A DNA stretch of 64,000 bases from a virus (Duplodnaviria; Caudoviricetes): IMG/VR virus record IMGVR_UViG_3300020577_002429, positions 1 to 64,000 of that record. The stretch is one strand, 5' to 3'. The position numbers and the translations under genes were made by a program. A model generated the notes under the pieces. It saw only the letters and a list, made by a program, of their open reading frames with translations, did no database searches and was not told the DNA's origin. Shown here in pieces: positions 1-24,171 of the stretch; the first letter of the stretch is position 1, and the number at the start of each line of letters is the position of its first letter.

Positions 1-291
1 TTAAGGAAGCAAGTTCAGTCTGAGGAGACTAAAAAGAAAAGAGCACTAAAACAAACCGGTCCCGGTAATCATAGATATGGAAAAACCGGAAACCTATCTG
101 CTAGTTTTGGTAAACCTAATGTCAATAGAATTAAAGTTGATTGTTTCACAAAAGATTTAGTATTTGTTAAGTCGTTTGAATGTATTTTAGAAGCTAGTAG
201 GTATTTAAAAGTTAGACCTACGAATATATCAGCTCATCTAAACGGTAAACAAAAGACAGTAAAAGGTCATATTTTTAAGAAAAGAGGATAA
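1..291 (+). CDS. 3' part of a homing-endonuclease-like protein (NUMOD3/NUMOD1-type DNA-binding C-terminus), truncated by window edge
   Basis: Frame 1 is open from base 1 to TAA at 289-291: ...QSEETKKKR...GNHRYGK...VKSFECILEASRYLKVRPTNISAHLNGKQKTVKGHIFK. Same architecture as the C-terminus of the GIY-YIG at 26422. Confidence 0.7.
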   Translation, partial: LRKQVQSEETKKKRALKQTGPGNHRYGKTGNLSASFGKPNVNRIKVDCFTKDLVFVKSFECILEASRYLKVRPTNISAHLNGKQKTVKGHIFKKRG

Positions 292-296
292 TAAAG

Positions 297-605
297 ATGT
301 TTAATGATGAACTAAATGATGACAATATTAAAAAAGAAATTGAACGTATTGAAAAACGAATGGAAGATCTTAAGTTGCTGCAAGAAAAGATTAAGAGCGT
401 AAAATTCTATGAGTGTGGTATTAGAAAATCAGACCATAAAGTATGTTATTTCTTCTTTACATTATCTGGAGTAGAGGGTATAGTAGATGTACGTATTCCG
501 CAGTCTAGCGAATCTTATAGAATTAACTTAGATACTTTTGTTATGGATTATATTCCATATTCAGCTAAGACTAGAGCCTTGTTACCAAAACGATATAAGA
601 GGTAG
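297..605 (+). CDS. hypothetical protein
   Basis: 102 aa ORF with upstream GAGG RBS. Confidence 0.7.
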   Translation: MFNDELNDDNIKKEIERIEKRMEDLKLLQEKIKSVKFYECGIRKSDHKVCYFFFTLSGVEGIVDVRIPQSSESYRINLDTFVMDYIPYSAKTRALLPKRYKR

Positions 606-607
606 AT

Positions 608-970
608 ATGAATGACATTAAAATGCCAAAAATTATTGAATATTATAAAACAAAAACACTAGATAAGGGAAGAGTAGAAACTTCCCTTCATTTATTTATG
701 ATAGATGCTGAAGTGTTTGATAACATCGTATTAGCATTTATTCGCGGTGAGACTAAGATAGTTGAGTGTCGTCATGGAGTGGCAGTAAAGCATCCTAAAG
801 ATAAATATGATAAGACTATTGCTAAGCAGGAAGCTTATAAGAAGCTGAAGAAAGAACGGTTAACTATTCGCAGAGTGGCGGCTTATGAAACTGGAACGCA
901 TATTCACTTAGATAACCTATTGACAATATCGAAGTATGGTGATAAGGTAATAGTTGAATGGTTGCTATAG
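608..970 (+). CDS. hypothetical phage protein
   Basis: 120 aa ORF with GAGG RBS; contains HGVAVKHPKDKYDKTIAKQEA, a G-x-A-x-x-x-P-x-D-x-Y-D type motif seen in small phage proteins. Confidence 0.7.
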   Translation: MNDIKMPKIIEYYKTKTLDKGRVETSLHLFMIDAEVFDNIVLAFIRGETKIVECRHGVAVKHPKDKYDKTIAKQEAYKKLKKERLTIRRVAAYETGTHIHLDNLLTISKYGDKVIVEWLL

Positions 971-1167
971 TTGGATTTGATCAACCAAAAAAGCCGTATT
1001 TTTTCTGTGAAAAGATGCCTAGTACCGAAAGACTCAGAATACATTTTTATAAAACAGAAAAAAGAGTAGCTTTGAAGCTGCACAAACTTTTAAACTTTGA
1101 TGTAGTATTGGATGGCTGGCATACTAATCGAGTGGATTACGAAGTTTTAAGGAAAGTTTTTTCATGA
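958..1167 (+). CDS. KLxKL-motif micro-protein (array member)
   Basis: Motif RVALKLHKLL; clear paralogue of 1164-1373. Confidence 0.8.
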   Translation: MVAIVGFDQPKKPYFFCEKMPSTERLRIHFYKTEKRVALKLHKLLNFDVVLDGWHTNRVDYEVLRKVFS

Positions 1168-1373
1168 AAATAGATTACTACAAGGATGTTGATATGGATT
1201 ATCCGTACTTATACTGTTGTCCTCACGATACATCGTTTAGAATTAAATTTAATAAGAATGAGGCTAGACTATGTCTAAAGCTTAGTAAAGTGTTAGAAAT
1301 GAAGTATTTAACGGGAGTTCATGCCGCAGATAAGTCGTTGAGTTATGACAATCTCAGAAAGATATTTAAATGA
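1164..1373 (+). CDS. KLxKL-motif micro-protein (array member)
   Basis: Motif RLCLKLSKVL; ATGA overlap with previous gene. Confidence 0.8.
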   Translation: MKIDYYKDVDMDYPYLYCCPHDTSFRIKFNKNEARLCLKLSKVLEMKYLTGVHAADKSLSYDNLRKIFK

Positions 1374-1552
1374 TTTATGATATTGGATTCCTGCCTACTA
1401 CAAAGGATTCGTACTATCATGGAAAAATTAAGGACGTAGATTTTAGAATTGTAATAAAAAGTAAGTCAGATGTACGCCTAGCTATAAAGCTGAGTAATTT
1501 TATCAGTTTTTATTTATATCCCCGATGTCGTCCTATCTCTTACGATACTTAA
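1370..1552 (+). CDS. KLxKL-motif micro-protein (array member)
   Basis: Motif FRI...RLAIKLSNFI; ATGA overlap. Confidence 0.75.
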   Translation: MIYDIGFLPTTKDSYYHGKIKDVDFRIVIKSKSDVRLAIKLSNFISFYLYPRCRPISYDT

Positions 1553-1555
1553 AGG

Positions 1556-1741
1556 ATGCCTATGAAGAAGCACAAAGTTACAGATAGTCCTGAGTTTGAC
1601 TCTAAGCGAGGTCTAGCTAAGTGGATTAAGATTATGCTGCCCGATGATAAGCTGGATGAAGGTGTTGAATACACTGATGGTGAGATGGTGTTATTTATTG
1701 ACAATAAGGAATTATTGTTTAAATTTTTGGACAGTGAATGA
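1556..1741 (+). CDS. hypothetical micro-protein within array (motif weak or absent)
   Basis: 61 aa, AAGGA RBS, ends KELLFKFLDSE. Confidence 0.65.
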   Translation: MPMKKHKVTDSPEFDSKRGLAKWIKIMLPDDKLDEGVEYTDGEMVLFIDNKELLFKFLDSE

Positions 1742-1935
1742 GCCTAGTTACAAGATTATCTAAATATCTCAGACCTCTTGATTACTTTGAGGACATAGTT
1801 ACTGGCGATGGAGTTATGTGGTGTTTTGCTCCTAATGTAGATGGCACATTTAAATTTACGGTAGAAGCTGGAACTGCTTACTCTCAGGTAAGATACTCAC
1901 CAAAGCTTGTGGTGAAGTTAGCGAAGTTGTTATGA
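1738..1935 (+). CDS. KLxKL-motif micro-protein (array member)
   Basis: Ends PKLVVKLAKLL-stop; ATGA overlaps at both ends. Confidence 0.8.
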   Translation: MSLVTRLSKYLRPLDYFEDIVTGDGVMWCFAPNVDGTFKFTVEAGTAYSQVRYSPKLVVKLAKLL

Positions 1936-2126
1936 CTACCACAAAGAAAATAATAGAATATACCGGATGTTCTAAGTATGAAACTATAATTACCAGAAAA
2001 TCGGTAGAGTGGACTTTTTATGCTAGAAAACAACAAGGGTACGCTTTTAGTTTTTTTGAATGGCATCGAGCACATGAACTAAATGCTTCACCTAGACTTG
2101 TTTTAAAATTAATGAAGGTGTTATGA
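1932..2126 (+). CDS. KLxKL-motif micro-protein (array member)
   Basis: Ends PRLVLKLMKVL-stop; paralogue of 2320-2526. Confidence 0.8.
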   Translation: MTTTKKIIEYTGCSKYETIITRKSVEWTFYARKQQGYAFSFFEWHRAHELNASPRLVLKLMKVL

Positions 2127-2323
2127 ATCCAGTAATTAATCATTTGTATAACATAAAACGTAAAAAATCATCTATGCTTGTGGATGATGATTATTATTTT
2201 GACCATAGAAATTTCACACATAGAGATGGTAAATTTTATTATTGGCTAGACGGTTATGTTCGTATAGCGCTTGAGCGAGATATAAGAGCAGCTTGTGCGA
2301 TTAAGATAATGAGGCTGTTATGA
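2123..2323 (+). CDS. KLxKL-motif micro-protein (array member)
   Basis: Ends ACAIKIMRLL-stop. Confidence 0.8.
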   Translation: MNPVINHLYNIKRKKSSMLVDDDYYFDHRNFTHRDGKFYYWLDGYVRIALERDIRAACAIKIMRLL

Positions 2324-2526
2324 GTCATGATAAACTAAAAAAATACTTAGGATGTACGGATAGTGGTGGAGTATTCTTATACCAAGTAATTACAAAATTT
2401 GAAGTTGACTGGGCTTTTTTTTATATGCCCGATAAATATCAAGTTATATTTAATCGTAACACTCCTAATTATACAGAAACAACTTATGATGTTAAATGTG
2501 TATTGAAGTTGGTGAAACTTTTATGA
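2320..2526 (+). CDS. KLxKL-motif micro-protein (array member)
   Basis: Ends KCVLKLVKLL-stop. Confidence 0.8.
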   Translation: MSHDKLKKYLGCTDSGGVFLYQVITKFEVDWAFFYMPDKYQVIFNRNTPNYTETTYDVKCVLKLVKLL

Positions 2527-2648
2527 AACAGGACTTAGTGTTTTTTAGAATGGGAACTATTTTAGAGGGGACATTAATTAGCGGATACTGTTCCAGCCGC
2601 GCCGCCATAAAAATGACTAAGCTATGTAAAGTATGGCCGCCAAAATAA
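2523..2648 (+). CDS. KLxKL-motif micro-protein, 41 aa (not in ORF track)
   Basis: MKQDLVFFRMGTILEGTLISGYCSSRAAIKMTKLCKVWPPK; ATGA overlap. Confidence 0.7.
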   Translation: MKQDLVFFRMGTILEGTLISGYCSSRAAIKMTKLCKVWPPK

Positions 2649-2663
2649 TAACCAAGGACCATT

Positions 2664-2852
2664 ATGATTGACAAATTCCAAAAACATTTATACGCAGAAC
2701 GTCATTGTAGAGATATGTTAATAAAACAAACTGGAGATGGCTATGTATATGTATTTTCTACGGGAATTACCACAACAACTACAGTAGGGGTGCGTGTTAT
2801 AAATTTAGAAGTTAAGCCTAAACTGCTTTTAAAAATGTGGAAGCTATTATGA
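2664..2852 (+). CDS. KLxKL-motif micro-protein (array member)
   Basis: Ends PKLLLKMWKLL-stop. Confidence 0.8.
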   Translation: MIDKFQKHLYAERHCRDMLIKQTGDGYVYVFSTGITTTTTVGVRVINLEVKPKLLLKMWKLL

Positions 2853-3034
2853 CTAAACTACAACGTATGGACTTGGCTCAGTTATTAGGAGTATCGTATG
2901 CAAATAGAACTTTTGAAAAGCAAAAAGTATTTTTAGTAAATCACTGCGGCTCAAGAGATTTTGATTATATATATCCTGTAAAAATAAGAAACATAAACAC
3001 AAAGCTAGCAATAAAACTATGGAAGTTATTATGA
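2849..3034 (+). CDS. KLxKL-motif micro-protein (array member)
   Basis: Start reassigned to the ATGA overlap at 2849; ends TKLAIKLWKLL-stop. Confidence 0.8.
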   Translation: MTKLQRMDLAQLLGVSYANRTFEKQKVFLVNHCGSRDFDYIYPVKIRNINTKLAIKLWKLL

Positions 3035-3249
3035 AAATAATTAGTATACCAGACTTTCCTTGTGACGCTTTAAGTGATAATAATATTCCAGGGCTGATAG
3101 ATTACGATATGTCCACGGTCAAGTCCTTTACTAAGTATTACATATTAAATGCACGTACTACATTAAAGCTTTATAAATTATGGAATCACTCCTCCGAGGT
3201 CGGACTATTTACCTGTCAAGAAATCGAGTACTATCTTGACAATATATAG
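3031..3249 (+). CDS. KLxKL-motif micro-protein (array member)
   Basis: Start reassigned to the ATGA overlap at 3031; motif RTTLKLYKLW. Confidence 0.75.
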   Translation: MKIISIPDFPCDALSDNNIPGLIDYDMSTVKSFTKYYILNARTTLKLYKLWNHSSEVGLFTCQEIEYYLDNI

Positions 3250-3397
3250 CTACATCCTGAACAGCAAGCCTGGAGATTATTACCGGACATCAGATCACCT
3301 GATATTACGACTTCCAGACAATCGTTACCGACTATGTCACCATAACTTGACAAACTTAACGACTCGTGTTATGTTTAAATTAATGAGGTTATTATGA
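3236..3397 (+). CDS. KLxKL-motif micro-protein, 53 aa, TTG start (not in ORF track)
   Basis: (M)TIYSYILNSKPGDYYRTSDHLILRLPDNRYRLCHHNLTNLTTRVMFKLMRLL-stop, ending in TTATGA like its neighbours. Confidence 0.7.
   Translation: MTIYSYILNSKPGDYYRTSDHLILRLPDNRYRLCHHNLTNLTTRVMFKLMRLL
3347..3375 (+). promoter_or_regulatory. sigma70-type promoter candidate inside array
   Basis: TTGACA (3347)-17 bp-TATGTT with TG extension; lies within the 3236-3397 ORF. Confidence 0.5.
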
Positions 3398-3599
3398 ATC
3401 ATGGCGAATTGCTTATTGCTTTAAAAAACGGAGCAGGATATGCTGAATGGGTTAATGGTGGATATCAGTTAGAGGTTCTTTTTTATCTTCACGTGGATAC
3501 TTAAAATTACAAAGATTAAACGCTTGGAATACGGGATTCGGATCATTGTGGGGAAACGCAAAAGTATTCAAATATTGGACGGATAGACATGACCGGTAA
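3394..3599 (+). pseudogene. frameshifted KLxKL-motif array member
   Basis: The ATG 3394 frame stops at 3504. One extra T in the T6 run (3479-3484) gives a 68 aa product containing SSRGYLKLQRLN and ending at 3599. Confidence 0.6.
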
Positions 3600-3837
3600 A
3601 GGATTATTAAAAGTTATTAGTCTAGGCGGTCACGAACTGACCTTCAAAAATATTGAACTTCGTAGATCAGTGCTTAATGAGAGGTACTTTTTTACGGAAC
3701 AATTTGATGTTTACACCGGTCAAGTCAATGCGACGCTGAACGGAATAACTGGAGTTACTGATGTTATGTTTCGGGGTAGAATATATACAAAATATGAAGT
3801 AATAACCTACTTACATAAGAATAAATTACTAAAATAG
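3589..3837 (+). CDS. array micro-protein with motif at N-terminus
   Basis: MTGKGLLKVISL...; 82 aa. Confidence 0.7.
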   Translation: MTGKGLLKVISLGGHELTFKNIELRRSVLNERYFFTEQFDVYTGQVNATLNGITGVTDVMFRGRIYTKYEVITYLHKNKLLK

Positions 3838-3851
3838 AGTTATTATTTTAC

Positions 3852-3880
3852 TTGACAAAATGGCTTATTTGTGGAACAAT
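3852..3880 (+). promoter_or_regulatory. sigma70-type promoter
   Basis: Intergenic TTGACA-17 bp-AACAAT with TG extension. Confidence 0.55.
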
Positions 3881-3904
3881 ATAGCGAGGCTGAGAAGGAT
3901 ACAA

Positions 3905-3952
3905 ATGGCACTTAATAAACAATATATAGCATTTGAAGTGGCGACTGCATGA
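3905..3952 (+). CDS. 15 aa leader minigene MALNKQYIAFEVATA
   Basis: AAGGA RBS upstream; stop overlaps ATG of 3949 (ATGA). Confidence 0.45.
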   Translation: MALNKQYIAFEVATA

Positions 3953-4158
3953 GTATCCATGACTGTGAAGTTTTAATTGACAACGGTAACGTCGAAGTTG
4001 GGTGGTTTTATGTTGATAGTAGTGTCGCACTGAAGCTTTTTAGATTGATAGGTTTTCGCGTATCCGTATTTAGAGGTAAAAGTTTATGCATTAGATACCA
4101 TACTGATACGTTGGATTCCTATGCCGATAAGATGAGAGGAGTATTACGTGATAATTAA
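3949..4158 (+). CDS. KLxKL-motif micro-protein (array member)
   Basis: Motif SVALKLFRLI. Confidence 0.75.
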   Translation: MSIHDCEVLIDNGNVEVGWFYVDSSVALKLFRLIGFRVSVFRGKSLCIRYHTDTLDSYADKMRGVLRDN

Positions 4159-4360
4159 AGGTGATAGACTAGGATTGTACTTCTATATCAACAGTGAAAG
4201 TAACATTTACAACTCTACACTTAAAGACGCTAGGTCCCTGCTTAAGGTATCTAAATTAGGCAATATTTACTGGTACGGATGGTTGGATGCTACAAGATCA
4301 AAGGATACAACAGTCTATGGGTATTTAACTACCTTAAAAAAGAGGACTCATGGTTATTAA
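4148..4360 (+). CDS. KLxKL-motif micro-protein (array member)
   Basis: Motif RSLLKVSKL; GTG start after GAGGAG. Confidence 0.75.
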   Translation: MIIKGDRLGLYFYINSESNIYNSTLKDARSLLKVSKLGNIYWYGWLDATRSKDTTVYGYLTTLKKRTHGY

Positions 4361-4574
4361 AAGCATGTACATCAACTGGACTGCATATGCCAAAAACAAC
4401 CACGTTAGTGGAGTATTGATACCTCTTTACGATGAGCTAGGAAACCCTCACATGCTATTTGGAAAACATAGACCTGTACTAAAACTAGCTAGGTTATTAG
4501 GATTGTCTAATCCCCTTTCTAGAGTTGGAATACTAAGCCTAGCCGGACCAATAAGGAGTTACTTATGTCGATAG
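4350..4574 (+). CDS. KLxKL-motif micro-protein (array member)
   Basis: Motif RPVLKLARLL. Confidence 0.75.
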   Translation: MVIKSMYINWTAYAKNNHVSGVLIPLYDELGNPHMLFGKHRPVLKLARLLGLSNPLSRVGILSLAGPIRSYLCR

Positions 4575-4765
4575 GAGTAGTTAATAGTCCATTCTCAGCT
4601 GGAGACATAATAGAGACAGCTAATGTCCTGAGTAAGTATGGTATATGTATTGGATCTGGTCACAGCTATGGCTATTTCATCTTTATAGAGCCAAGGTTGC
4701 TATGTAAGATGAAGAAGCTAATGTTCCTAGTCTGGGTGGCAAAACCTAATAGGAAGGCTTTATGA
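4565..4765 (+). CDS. KLxKL-motif micro-protein (array member)
   Basis: Motif PRLLCKMKKL. Confidence 0.75.
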   Translation: MSIGVVNSPFSAGDIIETANVLSKYGICIGSGHSYGYFIFIEPRLLCKMKKLMFLVWVAKPNRKAL

Positions 4766-4956
4766 AGGTAATACACAAATACGGTCTTCTATGGCGCGAA
4801 CAAAGCGACTATAGTGGGTTCATTATTTATTATCGATGGGATAGTGCGTTATTCCTATCAAACAGAATGCTGCTTAAAATGAAAGCATTAGGTAGTGATG
4901 TAGAATATACATCCTACAGTAAACTGCGTCCATATCTTATTAGGAGAAAAAAATGA
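4762..4956 (+). CDS. KLxKL-motif micro-protein (array member)
   Basis: Motif RMLLKMKALG; close paralogue of 4953-5123. Confidence 0.8.
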   Translation: MKVIHKYGLLWREQSDYSGFIIYYRWDSALFLSNRMLLKMKALGSDVEYTSYSKLRPYLIRRKK

Positions 4957-5123
4957 AGGTATTACCCTTTAATGGAGTTGTGTGGCGAGATCAATCTGAC
5001 TACCCTGGATTTATTGTTATAACAAGAGTAAGAACTGTTGCTATATTTATGAACTATAGAGCACTATTTAAGATGAAAGCTCTCGGTAAACACGTAGAGA
5101 AGACTAAAGCATGGATAAGCTAA
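4953..5123 (+). CDS. KLxKL-motif micro-protein, 56 aa (not in ORF track)
   Basis: MKVLPFNGVVWRDQSDYPGFIVITRVRTVAIFMNYRALFKMKALGKHVE..., a tandem duplicate of 4762-4956. Confidence 0.8.
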   Translation: MKVLPFNGVVWRDQSDYPGFIVITRVRTVAIFMNYRALFKMKALGKHVEKTKAWIS

Positions 5124-5166
5124 GAAGCAAGCTAAGCTATTTGCGCTCAATGGTGAGCCTTTTGAC

Positions 5167-5361
5167 GTGTTTTATGATGGCCGCAAGTGGAGAGTGCGCA
5201 GAGGCGAAGTATGTGCGGTGGTTAGAATCCAAGAGTGGGATGAGACTATAGAAATATACTCTCTAGGGTATTGTAATCATTACAACGACGCTCAGTCTAT
5301 AATAATAGCATTACAAGTTATTAAACTAGAAGACATGGGAAGGAAGCTAGCCGCATGGTGA
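5167..5361 (+). CDS. hypothetical micro-protein in array (start uncertain, weak motif)
   Basis: Frame open from 5119; may be the frameshifted continuation of ATG 5111. Confidence 0.55.
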   Translation: MFYDGRKWRVRRGEVCAVVRIQEWDETIEIYSLGYCNHYNDAQSIIIALQVIKLEDMGRKLAAW

Positions 5362-5573
5362 CATTTAAAGATTCTAAAGAGTTCGTGAATTATAAGAATA
5401 AGCATGGAGGTCTTTATGACGTTACTGATTATGAAGCATACCGGGGGCCTGGCTACTCCGGCACACCGTTAACGTCTAAGTGCGTTCTCAAGTTATTATT
5501 ACTATGTAGGGACTTGCCTCGACTCTACACTATGAATGAGATATCGTATTATGTTAGAGGAAGAACTTCATGA
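5355..5573 (+). CDS. KLxKL-motif micro-protein (array member)
   Basis: Motif SKCVLKLLLL. Confidence 0.75.
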   Translation: MVTFKDSKEFVNYKNKHGGLYDVTDYEAYRGPGYSGTPLTSKCVLKLLLLCRDLPRLYTMNEISYYVRGRTS

Positions 5574-5722
5574 ACTATACAGCATTATACACATCAGAAG
5601 GACCTAAAGTAACACTTAGAGTGGCTATAAAGCTATGGACACTGGGATTTAATAAAACGTGGTCTACAGGAGCTAATGCTAGGTATTATGATAGAATAGG
5701 GTTTTATAAGGAAATCAAATGA
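5570..5722 (+). CDS. KLxKL-motif micro-protein, 50 aa (not in ORF track)
   Basis: MNYTALYTSEGPKVTLRVAIKLWTLG...; ATGA overlaps. Confidence 0.75.
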   Translation: MNYTALYTSEGPKVTLRVAIKLWTLGFNKTWSTGANARYYDRIGFYKEIK

Positions 5723-5889
5723 AATATTATAGCTTTAGCCATCAGAAAGAAGCCACAATTTCTCCTAGGTTATTAATTAAACTAAAAATATTGCTTGGAT
5801 CTGTGCATAATACAGAGTACGTCGTAATATCGGATAAAAGCTACCGTGTTGCTATACATAATCAAGAAGAGGTTATTAGGTTATATTGA
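5719..5889 (+). CDS. KLxKL-motif micro-protein, 56 aa, last array member (not in ORF track)
   Basis: MKYYSFSHQKEATISPRLLIKLKILLG... Confidence 0.75.
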   Translation: MKYYSFSHQKEATISPRLLIKLKILLGSVHNTEYVVISDKSYRVAIHNQEEVIRLY

Positions 5890-5948
5890 GTTAAGGTACA
5901 GGTGACACTGTCCAGACCGTCCCACTCTCATTCCCACCTATACCCCCA

Positions 5949-6118
5949 TGCACATTTCATGCCACTCACTCTGGCATACTTTTTGCAAGCAGGATATTAT
6001 CGTATGCAATTATAATGCCAGCTATTGCCTTGCATTATTCATGCCACTGTATGACACAGTATATACTGTGCAATGCATATGCCAACAATGTCTTGTCCCA
6101 TTTGGCATAATTGTTGCA
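5949..6118. promoter_or_regulatory. cluster of six sigma54-type -24/-12 motifs (TGGCAT-N5-[T/A/G]TGCA) in both orientations
   Basis: + strand copies at 5972-5987 and 6103-6118; - strand copies at 5949-5964, 6005-6020, 6031-6046 and 6069-6084; exact GG-N10-GC spacing in all six. Confidence 0.65.
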
Positions 6119-6477
6119 ATGGCTATAGTTTTTATCTATATGCTGTCATGTTGATATAGTCTTAAGCGTATTTTTGCTACTATTACTACACATGATCTTA
6201 TAACCTATCTTGTTATATCTCTCTGTCATGTCCGAATTTAGGCAAAGCTATAGACTACCTTGTATGATACACGGTTAGTCAATTCAGCTCATCACTTAGT
6301 TACACAACGTTAGATTGTGCTTTGTTTGATGATCTATGGTCTCGAATAGAATCAGCAGTTAAGTCAGGACTCTTTTGATTGTCGAGTCATCTGTCAGCGA
6401 CTTTCATCACGCTGCCTTGTCCTTTATAACATCACTGTATATAAAGCTTTAATCCCTAGTGTCTATTCACTCTTACA

Positions 6478-6488
6478 AATATATGTTA
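6478..6488 (-). promoter_or_regulatory. putative late promoter motif TAACATATATT (isolated copy pointing left)
   Basis: Identical to the motif upstream of - strand virion genes. Confidence 0.55.
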
Positions 6489-6504
6489 ATTTATAGCTGT
6501 CTAA

Positions 6505-6533
6505 CTTATACCATATTGTATAATATTTGTCAA
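6505..6533 (-). promoter_or_regulatory. leftward sigma70-type promoter
   Basis: - strand TTGACA-17 bp-TATAAG with TG extension. Confidence 0.5.
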
Positions 6534-6644
6534 GTGGGCTAAGTATTTAATAACCTTAATGAATAGCCGGTTTTCTAAAAATATAGCCTTAAGTTATACA
6601 CTATCTCATTATGAGAATTACTGTAATAACAACTAGTTACGAGT

Positions 6645-6660
6645 TGGCACAAGCTATGCA
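6645..6660 (+). promoter_or_regulatory. sigma54-type promoter upstream of first early gene
   Basis: TGGCAC-AAGCT-ATGCA, 27 nt upstream of ATG 6688, with a GAGG RBS in between. Confidence 0.55.
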
Positions 6661-6687
6661 GTTATATAAATTCAACGAGGCGGTAAA

Positions 6688-6936
6688 ATGAGATTTATAG
6701 TAAGCGAGACATATCAAGAGATTACACCAGAGTCAGCACAATATGGTGATTTTAGCGATACTGGCTTTGTGTTTCAAGATGAGACGTACAGCCTGCGTGA
6801 ACTGATTAATTTTATAAAGCGTAACGGGTATACTAGAGAGAGTAAGGGAACAAACTGGCTGACGGTAGGACCTTGGACTGAATGCTATAGGACAGGGACT
6901 GAACGCTCTACTAACTTACATATAACTTTAAAATAG
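6688..6936 (+). CDS. hypothetical early protein
   Basis: 82 aa ORF with RBS. Confidence 0.75.
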   Translation: MRFIVSETYQEITPESAQYGDFSDTGFVFQDETYSLRELINFIKRNGYTRESKGTNWLTVGPWTECYRTGTERSTNLHITLK

Positions 6937-6946
6937 GAGTATCATA

Positions 6947-7291
6947 ATGAAACAATTTATCATCATCAGTTTAGACAGACCTAAAAATCCAGCAAGTGAC
7001 CTAGACAAGCAAGCATTAATACAATTGTTTGATGCTAAGCCTGTACTTGGATCTTATAAAGGCCAGACAGAGACATCTTTCTTAGTTGACTACAGTTATT
7101 TTGATAGTATGATTCAAATAGCTATGAAATACGGACAAGAGTCTATTCTAGTCAAGGATAGTACCGCTATCTATCTTGTCTATCCTGAAACACTAGCTTA
7201 TAGCAAGTTAGGCAATGAGTTCAGAATGTCTAATGTTATGCCAGACAGTGACGCTTGGACCTTAATTGATGAGACGTATTTTTATTTATAG
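6947..7291 (+). CDS. probable S-adenosylmethionine lyase (T3 SAMase-like)
   Basis: G-S-Y-K-G-x-x-E-x-S and A-x-x-Y-G-Q-E-S-I-L motifs, size 114 aa, position at the start of the early region. Confidence 0.55.
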   Translation: MKQFIIISLDRPKNPASDLDKQALIQLFDAKPVLGSYKGQTETSFLVDYSYFDSMIQIAMKYGQESILVKDSTAIYLVYPETLAYSKLGNEFRMSNVMPDSDAWTLIDETYFYL

Positions 7292-7317
7292 AACATTTTT
7301 ATTTATAAGGTGGTATC

Positions 7318-7596
7318 ATGAAATCAAAAAAAGCATCTTATCAGTCTTTACTTAATAGAGTATCAATTTTAGAGGCGTCAACACTTATTAATTTTGTTCA
7401 ATCTAAGTCAAACTTAAATAAATTAAGTGAGTCCAGTTTTATGGCATCAGGACTAGTTGTTGAAATTAAAGACCTGTCAGGCAACATCAAGGCTAAGTTT
7501 ATGGTTCCTGATGGTTTCAATCCTGAAACTATTGTGGCTTTGCAGCTCGAACTAGATAAAGCTATTTCTTTACAAGCGGCTCATATTAAGAAGTGA
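7318..7596 (+). CDS. hypothetical early protein
   Basis: 92 aa ORF with RBS. Confidence 0.7.
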   Translation: MKSKKASYQSLLNRVSILEASTLINFVQSKSNLNKLSESSFMASGLVVEIKDLSGNIKAKFMVPDGFNPETIVALQLELDKAISLQAAHIKK

Positions 7597-7718
7597 CATT
7601 TTTTGTTATACACTGTAAAAAGCTTAGACAATAATTAAGCTTTAAAATGAATGTAATAGTATTAAATTGGCCCCGATACTGCATTAAAGAACATCAACAA
7701 CTAACGAAAGGCAAAAAA

Positions 7719-8030
7719 ATGAAACTAACATACAGCATCTGTCAAGACTTAATTAAGAAAGGTAGAGGCAAAACTAAGAAACTGGACAATAATACTTATT
7801 TGATGCAAGATGATAGTGAAACACCTAGATTCTTTGTTCAATTGCATGGCAACACAATTTTAGTCATTTATCCGGATAAAGTACAACATTTTGATGCTGG
7901 TTGGCAGACAGTGACAACTAAGGACCGGCTTAATAAGTTTGGTCACTTAAGAATTTTTCAAAAGAAAGGCATCTGGTATACGACAGACAAAGTTGAGTTT
8001 ACTAGTGGTGTATCGGTGTACTATGCTTAA
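7719..8030 (+). CDS. conserved-type phage hypothetical protein (LHGN...GWQTVTTKDRLN)
   Basis: Start reassigned to ATG 7719 after AAAGG; motif is typical of a widespread early phage family of unknown function. Confidence 0.7.
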   Translation: MKLTYSICQDLIKKGRGKTKKLDNNTYLMQDDSETPRFFVQLHGNTILVIYPDKVQHFDAGWQTVTTKDRLNKFGHLRIFQKKGIWYTTDKVEFTSGVSVYYA

Positions 8031-12706: not shown

Positions 12707-13006
12707 ATGAAGTTTAAAAAGGGTGATTTTATCGTAAATAAGAGATTTCCATTTAAATTCTATCAATTTATTTGTAGCGGAGTAAAGCATGCACCGACCA
12801 CATATCATGTTTATCCTGAGTACGCAGTAACGGTAATAAGAGATGATTTTAAGTTTGATTTATATTTCACCCATAAAAAGGACTTTACTGATATGTTTAA
12901 AAGAGCAAAAGATGATGATATTATTGAATATCTAAGCTTTCATGTAAGAAGTCATATAGTAAATAGCTTGACGGATAAATTTAAAGCTAGTATAAAGGAT
13001 ATATGA
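12707..13006 (+). CDS. hypothetical protein
   Basis: 99 aa ORF with AGGAG RBS. Confidence 0.7.
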   Translation: MKFKKGDFIVNKRFPFKFYQFICSGVKHAPTTYHVYPEYAVTVIRDDFKFDLYFTHKKDFTDMFKRAKDDDIIEYLSFHVRSHIVNSLTDKFKASIKDI

Positions 13007-13221
13007 ATATAAATGACATAACATCACAACCCACAACATTTACCTCAGCATCGCTACAATATGCTCAGGTTGACAGTAATGATAACATAGTGCATATTTA
13101 TACTACTAGACAATCTGCTAGCTATATGGTATCATTGTCTGGTGGGTATGTTTTAGAAGTGTTTACAATAAAGAATAAGATACTAGCAATAGGAGATGTA
13201 CATGAAAACCGACTATGGTGA
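13003..13221 (+). CDS. hypothetical protein
   Basis: 72 aa, ATGA overlap. Confidence 0.65.
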   Translation: MNINDITSQPTTFTSASLQYAQVDSNDNIVHIYTTRQSASYMVSLSGGYVLEVFTIKNKILAIGDVHENRLW

Positions 13222-13378
13222 CTTATTTAAAATAGCGGACAGTGATGTGTTCATCTGTGATAGACCATTAGAAGGTGAAGGTAGGTGGATTCACTATTAT
13301 CACTATATGGATAAAGATGGCAATGAATATCAAATATGGTGTGATCAGGATGGTGACGAGAAGGTGGTGGAGTTATGA
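13196..13378 (+). CDS. hypothetical protein
   Basis: 60 aa acidic ORF with AGGAG RBS. Confidence 0.65.
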   Translation: MYMKTDYGDLFKIADSDVFICDRPLEGEGRWIHYYHYMDKDGNEYQIWCDQDGDEKVVEL

Positions 13379-23687: not shown

Positions 23688-23968
23688 GTAAAAAAGTAAC
23701 GAAGAAGCCTACAAAAAAACTAGTGGTAAATAAGCTATTATCTTACTTTGGTGGAAAGATTGTGTCTATTGTTCTGAAAGAAAGTAGAGCGGCTGGTGGT
23801 AGTCCTATTATTAAAGGTATGATATTGGACATGGACAATTACTATTATTATTTGGGGGATGCTTTAGATGTTGAGCTTGCTATTCCTATTAATACTGTTA
23901 CAATGATAAGAGATGGCGAACTTACTGAGGACGAAGACCTCAAGCCATTTGGAGATAAGTATCAATGA
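23684..23968 (+). CDS. hypothetical protein (Sm/SH3-like beta barrel possible)
   Basis: Start reassigned to the ATGA overlap at 23684. Confidence 0.65.
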   Translation: MSKKVTKKPTKKLVVNKLLSYFGGKIVSIVLKESRAAGGSPIIKGMILDMDNYYYYLGDALDVELAIPINTVTMIRDGELTEDEDLKPFGDKYQ

Positions 23969-24171
23969 TTGTGATTAGCAATTATTCTAATATAGAATAT
24001 ATGCCTTATACAATAGCTTTACAACTTAACTATGAAGCTACTTGGTTAAATTCTGAAAGCATAAAAGAATGCAGAATGTTATTTAAGTTACAAAAGTTAA
24101 CAAATGCACCTCTTTTTAAAATGAATAAAGCTGATAACGCTATTGGATTTATGTGGGAGAAGATACGATGA
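23965..24171 (+). CDS. dispersed KLxKL-motif micro-protein coupled to DNA polymerase
   Basis: Motif ECRMLFKLQKLT; stop overlaps polymerase ATG. Confidence 0.7.
   Translation: MIVISNYSNIEYMPYTIALQLNYEATWLNSESIKECRMLFKLQKLTNAPLFKMNKADNAIGFMWEKIR

Follow-up and report, generated by a model that had tools for sequence, protein, structure and literature searches.

The window analyzed here, the first 64 kb (64,000 nt) of the 81,942-bp IMG/VR virus record IMGVR_UViG_3300020577_002429 (estimated completeness 98%), carries on its plus strand, at positions 958-5889, a chain of 25 small genes for proteins of 36-82 amino acids (aa). The genes were taken from an open reading frame (ORF) listing, with starts refined by choosing the start codon closest to the upstream stop. 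An earlier account drawn from the letters alone (the sequence-only reading) had described 4.9 kb of back-to-back small ORFs, mostly joined by ATGA overlaps, and this description holds: ATGA overlaps make up 14 of the 25 junctions (15 if gene 5355 begins at the GTG at 5358), six are overlaps of 7-14 nt, and the remaining five are gaps of 3, 15, 43, 84, and 111 nt. By BLAST network, profiles, and leave-one-out tests, the 25 chained genes are paralogues by descent, and the family takes up roughly 6% of the phage genome. Its members are basic, with a median isoelectric point (pI) of 9.6 against 6.5 for 43 other small plus-strand ORFs of the genome. Individual genes, named here by their start positions, are listed in Table 1.

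Twenty-one intact array genes and one frameshifted gene encode the motif [R/K]-x-x-h-K-[L/M/I/V]-x-[K/R]-[L/V]-L-(G). A motif with an invariant lysine in nearly all members had been reported by the sequence-only reading, and every peptide it quoted was located, although the one at 3492 lies in a start-less frame that forms the second half of the frameshifted member. Genome-wide, 13 ORFs match a strict form of the motif ([RK]-x-x-[LIVF]-K-[LMIV]-x-[KR]-[LV]), 12 of them in the array, and 26 match a loose form, including 19 in the array. These counts lie far above those from composition-preserving shuffles of the array proteins, which gave 0.04 strict and 0.15 loose matches, with a maximum of 2 in 2000 shuffles. 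With a 21-column profile centered on the lysine, 23 members scored at least 16.8 bits and all other ORFs of the genome at most 5.7 bits. When members were left out of the profile in turn and ranked against every ORF of 25 aa or more in the genome, 19 of the 23 came right behind the remaining members. Besides the array that the sequence-only reading had described, there are four more members: one at 23965-24171 and three beyond the window at genome positions 69769-70464 (70291-70464 and the weaker 69939-70199 and 69769-69990).

The most conserved residue of the family is the charged lysine at position 5 of the motif, and no conserved acidic position was found elsewhere in the members (alignments A1-A3). 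In window members the motif begins 16-58 residues from the N-terminus; it is internal in 16 of the 23 and forms the C-terminal end in seven. A short type (1738, 1932, 2123, 2320, 2664, 2849, and 3236; alignment A2) begins with an N-terminal helix, continues with a beta region in which G-V-x-W-x-F is conserved, and ends in the motif. A long type (alignment A3) consists of strands, the motif helix, often a glycine, more strands, and a last helix. Profile-profile comparison of the subfamilies with hhalign aligned only 11-14 helix columns (A2-A3, E-value 8e-5 over 14 columns; A2-A4, 1.7e-3; A3-A4, 0.011), and the predicted 11-residue amphipathic helix is the sole element conserved family-wide. To call the bodies of the members largely unrelated, as had been done, is thus fair for the family as a whole, but full-length subfamilies exist (A2 and A3).

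Table 1. Small genes of the array, a dispersed member, and a junction repeat in the window. A2 and A3 are the alignments of the short and long types; L003, L004, and L008 are contigs of related phages; "by eye" marks helices seen in the sequence and not by the profile.
Position	Strand	Feature	Evidence or remark
958-1167	+	Long type: internal motif helix, then strand(s) and C-terminal helix	AlphaFold2 pLDDT 75, motif in helix 32-45
1164-1373	+	Long type; nearest paralogue of 958 (E-value 3e-8)	ATGA junction
1370-1552	+	Long type, C-terminus shortened	Profile, ortholog comparison
1556-1741	+	Acidic array gene; possible divergent helix copy, Trp at position 6	dN/dS 0.07-0.08, pI 4.9; helix by eye
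1738-1935	+	Short type, motif forms the C-terminus	Orthologues P0005-P0009 in other samples
1932-2126	+	Short type	100% identity with L003 orthologue
2123-2323	+	Short type, weak motif (Ala at position 1)	Fails leave-one-out test
2320-2526	+	Short type, plus motif-like N-terminal helix	DNA repeat D4 ties N-terminal helix to 5719 motif
2523-2648	+	Member; start moved to ATGA overlap	Gene call on L004 orthologue
2664-2852	+	Short type	Motif match, A2
2849-3034	+	Short type; start moved to ATGA overlap	Motif match, A2
3031-3249	+	Long type; start moved to ATGA overlap	Motif match, A3
3236-3397	+	Short type, TTG start	Motif match, A2
3394-3599	+	Frameshifted member; frames 3394-3504 and 3456-3599 are one gene	Comparison with intact L003:8014-8220 (68 aa)
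3589-3837	+	Array gene, possible N-terminal helix variant (by eye)	Kept in L003 and L004; dN/dS 0.26
3949-4158	+	Long type, Ser at position 1	33% identity to L003 vs 57% to L004: mosaic
4148-4360	+	Long type, GTG start	Motif match, A3
4350-4574	+	Long type	Motif match, A3
4565-4765	+	Member	Motif match, profile
4762-4956	+	Long type, recent duplicate of 4953	53% identity, E-value 8e-15
4953-5123	+	Member, recent duplicate of 4762	Motif match, BLAST
5167-5361	+	Array gene, degenerate C-terminal helix variant (by eye)	Kept in L003, L004, and L008
5355-5573	+	Long type, Leu at position 8	Orthologue P0003
5570-5722	+	Member, short N-terminal part	Motif match, A3
5719-5889	+	Final array member, short N-terminal part	Motif match, A3
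23965-24171	+	Dispersed member just 5' of DNA polymerase gene	Regular-expression match outside array; passes leave-one-out test
1907-3400	+	32-nt junction element, six copies	Repeat family D1; first four 191-203 nt apart

An AlphaFold2 model of the 958-1164 protein built with A3 reached a mean predicted local distance difference test (pLDDT) score of 75 and a predicted template modeling score of 0.58, and shows three short strands, the motif helix as its most confident part, two further strands, and a last helix. Searches of the PDB and BFVD with this model by Foldseek returned no match at E-values up to 0.001, an exhaustive VIA-align comparison with 48,161 chains gave a best Z of 3.5, at chance level, and the ESM Atlas held no feature match (its own model, with a pLDDT of 0.49, is too poor for use). 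Pfam, NCBIfam, and PHROGs were silent for all 25 members, with no PHROG match below an E-value of 0.002; a sequence profile search of the PDB gave only E-values of 0.6-0.8; and megablast of the array against 50,697 cultured-phage records found no match. The view that no described family matches thus withstood the family databases, PDB sequences, and three fold searches. Specific candidates were also set aside. The best match to ribosomal protein uL30 (E-value 0.83, to a strand-helix stretch of eukaryotic uL30, with no Pfam match) is at chance level. A ribbon-helix-helix protein of the Arc/MetJ/CopG kind is opposed by the lack of a Pfam match to such families and by the model, which puts two strands rather than a helix after the motif helix; no ribbon-helix-helix protein appeared in the fold-search lists, which themselves held no significant match. 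A helix-turn-helix repressor was likewise set aside. We read the members as small, mostly basic proteins of a lineage-specific family, probably with an alpha/beta fold.

To examine how the array evolves, we compared it with orthologues gathered by a profile search of 5.8 billion proteins, on contigs L003 (75 kb), L004 (54.5 kb), and L005 (21 kb). The ratio of nonsynonymous to synonymous substitution rates (dN/dS) for orthologous pairs with L004 was mostly 0.1-0.55, and the pooled ratio of nonsynonymous to synonymous differences (pN/pS) was 0.49; against the closer L003, where changes are few, it was 0.67. Because the arrays of relatives are collinear and dN/dS is below 1, these comparisons indicate that the array genes are coding and under purifying but relaxed selection. 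ORF boundaries are also conserved between relatives. The motif residues (10-11 per protein) show 83% identity between window members and their L004 orthologues, compared with 57% in the remainder of the protein (p = 2e-9). The conserved lysine uses both of its codons and the leucine positions use up to six, and this synonymous variation places the constraint on the peptide rather than on a DNA element. The frameshifted gene 3394-3599 differs from its intact L003 counterpart by a 1-nt deletion in a T run, and is either a pseudogene or a homopolymer assembly error.

The source is an uncultured freshwater podovirus-like phage of about 82 kb. Metagenome runs sharing part of the sequence are labeled aquatic, river, or freshwater, and two runs compared with the region have matching contigs, whereas run X2 gave none there and the other runs leave parts of the array uncovered, which is no sign of absence; among the 50,697 phage records the capsid protein has a single match, to a Silvanigrella phage, at 28.7% identity. 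A plus-strand gene block runs from about 69.7 kb through the record end to about 34 kb, with a ClpP-family protease, a dUTPase region, a DnaB-type helicase, a MoxR-type AAA ATPase, and a DUF2201 protein in that order, then the array. The array therefore lies 3' of the ATPase and DUF2201 genes, which sit at the other end of the record, and it closes the replication-side operon, in a hyperplastic part of it. It is followed by a gene-free stretch of 0.8 kb (5890-6687) and, as the second gene past it, by a gene of the S-adenosylmethionine (S-AdoMet) lyase family (6947-7291; Pfam PF23780, 40.2 bits against a cut-off of 28). This family is known for anti-restriction. The PHROGs label for the best match of 6947-7291 is methyltransferase. 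Further 3' on the plus strand lie genes for sigma-like proteins, exonucleases, and DNA polymerase A, and a minus-strand block at 34-69 kb holds genes for the capsid, portal, terminase, and a protein matching internal virion proteins.

Syntenic arrays, which the sequence-only reading had suggested seeking in metagenomes, were found in L003, L004/L005, L008, L010, L006, and L007. In L003, L004/L005, L008, and L010 they are collinear and lie between the MoxR-type ATPase/DUF2201 genes and the S-AdoMet lyase gene, and the ATPase/DUF2201 pair flanks the arrays in every relative examined. Gene content differs: a profile trained on the window found 18 members in L003 and 21 in L004/L005, L004 has a single counterpart of the trio 958/1164/1370 as well as several array genes absent from the window, and BLAST (E-value up to 1e-3) finds nothing in L003 or L004 that matches the 4762/4953 pair. 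Identity to one and the same relative runs from 100% to 33% along the array, and this unevenness marks the array as a mosaic. In one freshwater contig (run X5), 287 nt at 960-1248 are replaced by 84 other letters; this contig is a natural copy-number variant in which the first array gene or genes are missing or replaced. The sole acidic array gene, 1556-1741, is by far the most conserved (92% identical in L004) and may have a distinct, essential role among its fast-evolving neighbors.

Paralogy within the array follows position. The closest pairs by BLAST are 4762/4953 (E-value 8e-15), 958/1164 (3e-8), and 1738/1932 (1e-5), and the best paralogue was the adjacent gene in 9 of 17 cases, a value equaled by 1 of 10,000 random assignments. 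The earlier statement that neighbors are the closest paralogues is borne out for these three pairs and in the overall count, and neighbor paralogy is as expected for the growth by tandem duplication that had been proposed. No longer, fused forms of the members turned up in a search for them, though as evidence this is weak.

The DUF2201 neighbor led to more distant relatives; they came from protein searches, as a search of viral contigs for the locus with the DUF2201 protein returned nothing. In L008 and L010 (DUF2201 identity 75% and 57%) the lysine-centered helix is N-terminal, internal, or C-terminal, and in L010 arrays flank the ATPase/DUF2201 pair on each side. L006 and L007 (59% and 50%) carry syntenic arrays of genes of about 60 aa that open with a related helix in which arginine takes the place of lysine. 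In L009, a 110-kb sediment phage with a DUF2201 protein at 37% identity, arrays at L009:4832-6424 and L009:10954-12891 lie on either side of the DUF2201 gene and share another C-terminal motif, roughly T-K-x-L-[L/F]-Y-G-K. Motif-tagged arrays of small genes beside the ATPase/DUF2201 pair may thus be a wider habit of this phage group.

An exhaustive profile search with the L006/L007 alignment against 1.84 billion representatives returned 11 proteins at E-values up to 0.001, ten of them small proteins of the same phage group. As the search yields almost only this group, the family is confined to a narrow clade of uncultured phages. The eleventh match, P0133 (485 aa), belongs to the ankyrin-repeat proteins; four of its repeats were matched, each on the second helix. 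That helix resembles the one in the arrays in having two hydrophobic residues before K-L-L and a glycine six residues past the lysine, often followed by D-V. Unlike ankyrin repeats, the members have no first helix, no TPLH motif, and no 33-residue periodicity, and hmmscan of 25 window and 22 L006/L007 members found no Ank family at E-values up to 0.1, with one helix per gene. From these sequence features the likeness looks like convergence of one helix and gives no family assignment.

Arrays of small paralogous phage genes are already known, but this family is new. In the N4-like Pseudomonas phage LUZ7, 29 small genes have no database similarity and no assigned function (PMC3715699); like the array, they form a long head-to-tail block of tiny genes found in one lineage only and absent from close relatives (PMC3715699). 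The LUZ7 cluster belongs to another phage group and another site, adjoining the terminal repeat, and no similarity to it was found. The jumbo phages G and 121Q carry tandem arrays of more than 30 similar genes, which have been attributed to tandem duplications enlarging the genome (PMC5646251). The copies in G and 121Q are described as very similar to one another, whereas those studied here have diverged until an 11-residue helix is what they share. No relation to the LUZ7 or G/121Q arrays emerged from PHROGs (none below an E-value of 0.002) or from megablast against the 50,697 records. What is new is a mid-sized basic helix of variable position as the shared element, in arrays with no detectable relation to known ones. 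In this locus, a family of tiny proteins has retained a single charged helix and little else has stayed constant, and related phages have each rebuilt it differently.

The sequence-only reading had interpreted the array as a diversifying effector library, in which a common helix for docking, targeting, or oligomerization is attached to fast-evolving domains of an anti-defense or host-takeover arsenal. A real, coding, and rapidly diversifying tandem family stands from that account, whereas the evidence stops short of the function given to the helix and of the role given to the arsenal. We tentatively favor a related explanation, in which the helix bears a basic stripe that meets a single acidic partner common to the members, the variable bodies diversify, and the whole serves as a host-directed toolkit; it is the likeliest of the readings weighed here, though we hold it with less than even confidence. 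On a helical wheel, positions 3, 6, 7, and 10 would form a hydrophobic face packing on the protein's own small beta-sheet, and positions 1, 5, and 8 (R/K, the invariant K, and K/R) would form one exposed basic stripe on the opposite face. With no other position conserved family-wide, nothing within the molecule is available to pair with the lysine, and the stripe would therefore meet an external partner. The likeliest candidates for that partner are nucleic acid and an acidic patch of one particular protein of the host or the phage; differing specificities or activities would come from the variable bodies. The arginine that replaces lysine in L006 and L007 keeps the charge. A role in host takeover or counter-defense is suggested by the position and evolutionary behavior of the array only; the location is compatible with a host-directed role and no proof of one.

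Should the helix be such a shared handle, the phage would carry in this array a natural library of small host-directed binders or inhibitors and a source of new anti-defense or host-shutoff proteins, as well as a clean model for the birth, duplication, and shuffling of phage genes. A stronger version makes the helix a universal adaptor that links two dozen fast-evolving mini-domains to one hub, either nucleic acid or one machine of the host or the phage, for example the MoxR-type ATPase/DUF2201 pair. We consider this version doubtful; if true, it would make the array a modular, expandable effector library whose handle could sit at either protein terminus, and would give bacterial viruses a counterpart to motif-tagged effector families. 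We also considered that gene boundaries drifting along an ancient repeat unit would explain the N-terminal, internal, and C-terminal positions of the helix.

Several points weigh against a shared partner. That the basic stripe is exposed is read off a helical wheel rather than off coordinates, and partner binding is presumed. A lysine in a helix can be structural, its aliphatic chain packing on the sheet. The fold is uncertain, as the long-type model has no fold match and AlphaFold2 modeled the short type poorly (pLDDT 60.6). The window type and the N-terminal type found in L006 and L007 are linked as homologues by weak, helix-only profile matches (E-values 0.002-0.011). Promoter and terminator scans gave background level only, and the sole RNA signal, four short contigs on the array in one metatranscriptome, is a weak hint of transcription that could also reflect DNA carry-over.

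A purely structural helix is not much less likely than one that meets a shared partner. The motif would then be a mere folding nucleus of minimal alpha/beta domains with no partner in common, each member acting independently or many of them standing near-idle. In favor of a folding nucleus, the helix keeps its hydrophobic positions as a class and is predicted better than any other part of the model, and both the pooled pN/pS of 0.49-0.67 and the frameshifted member fit dispensable genes. A folding nucleus would not, however, lead us to expect that the top conserved residue is charged rather than hydrophobic (lysine, replaced only by arginine in distant relatives), that no conserved acidic position accompanies it, or that the members are far more basic than the other small proteins of the genome. 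We regard this explanation as somewhat unlikely. If it is correct, the array would still be a well-documented new family of phage "dark matter" proteins, of ordinary interest.

The helix could instead serve homo- or hetero-oligomerization, with coupled neighbors made in fixed ratios and joined in mixed complexes. ATGA overlaps at more than half of the junctions are of a kind common for subunits of one complex, and the helix is leucine-rich and amphipathic. But 11 residues are too short for a coiled coil, ATGA coupling is common across phage operons, and no interface prediction supports the contact, which together make oligomerization improbable.

Still less probable is a virion-targeting signal, by which the small basic proteins would be taken into the virion along with the DNA, to be injected as a first wave of counter-defense. 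The model for it is the internal proteins of T-even phages, a highly diverse defense-countering set that shares only a conserved targeting sequence and includes the anti-restriction protein IPI* (PMC3012670). Like the array proteins, IPI, IPII, and IPIII are small, diverse, and basic, come from a hypervariable locus, and share one short peptide; the phage studied here also encodes a ClpP-family protease. The T4 signal, however, occurs solely at the N-terminus, undergoes cleavage by the prohead protease, and directs proteins to the scaffolding core. The array helix has no fixed position, lying 16-58 residues into the window proteins and N-terminal, internal, or C-terminal across the family; alignments A1-A3 show no conserved cleavage motif beside it; and no sequence relation to the T-even proteins was detected. 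The genes also lie outside the head module, on the replication strand and far from the head genes, which occupy the opposite strand at about 34-69 kb.

The motif might also be no protein feature at all, but a by-product of overlapping Shine-Dalgarno (SD) and ATGA signals or a recombination linker. Signs of such signals are found where the motif is C-terminal. In these seven motifs codon 7 always ends in G (7/7, against 3/16 internal motifs; p = 5e-4), six have AAG or AGG as codon 8, and the last codon is always TTA, overlapping the ATGA, so that the final motif codons also provide the next gene with its ribosome-binding site and ATGA start. These helix end codons, an SD-like GAAGG or GAGG (AAGG/GAGG), and the ATGA make up the 32-nt junction repeat, which could also serve unequal crossing-over. 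By contrast, the 16 internal motifs have no start behind them and keep the same residues with varied synonymous codons, and orthologues conserve the peptide above the rest of the protein. Double coding therefore accounts for part of the conservation in the short type and not for the internal motifs, which rule out a by-product as the full explanation; we consider the latter very improbable, and retain the translation signals as an added constraint on short-type members. The double use of helix codons illustrates how tightly coding and translation signals can interlock. Hardly credible, finally, is an untranslated array or the decayed or fragmented remains of a repeat-protein gene, such as an ankyrin-like one: the N-terminal-type profile did match the second helix of four P0133 repeats, but Pfam finds no ankyrin, there is one helix per 60-70 aa rather than per 33, the bodies are predicted to be beta-rich, ORF boundaries are conserved, and dN/dS is below 1.

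Two further features of the record were noted. The final ~170 bases of the record are a copy of its opening bases, inside a gene for a GIY-YIG homing endonuclease (window 1-291 and genome 81150-81941, or L002:17150-17941); the shared part differs by one residue (Asn/Ser), and the overlapping ends imply a genome that is circularly permuted or has a short terminal repeat. An Rfam scan of positions 1-8000 found no RNA family, and a tRNA gene scan of the window found none. Directly 5' of the array, positions 608-970 encode a 120-aa protein with no Pfam or PHROG match, which is kept in all relatives examined (L003, L004, L006, L007, and L008). In L007 the copy of this gene (12934-13311) sits in the middle of the array.

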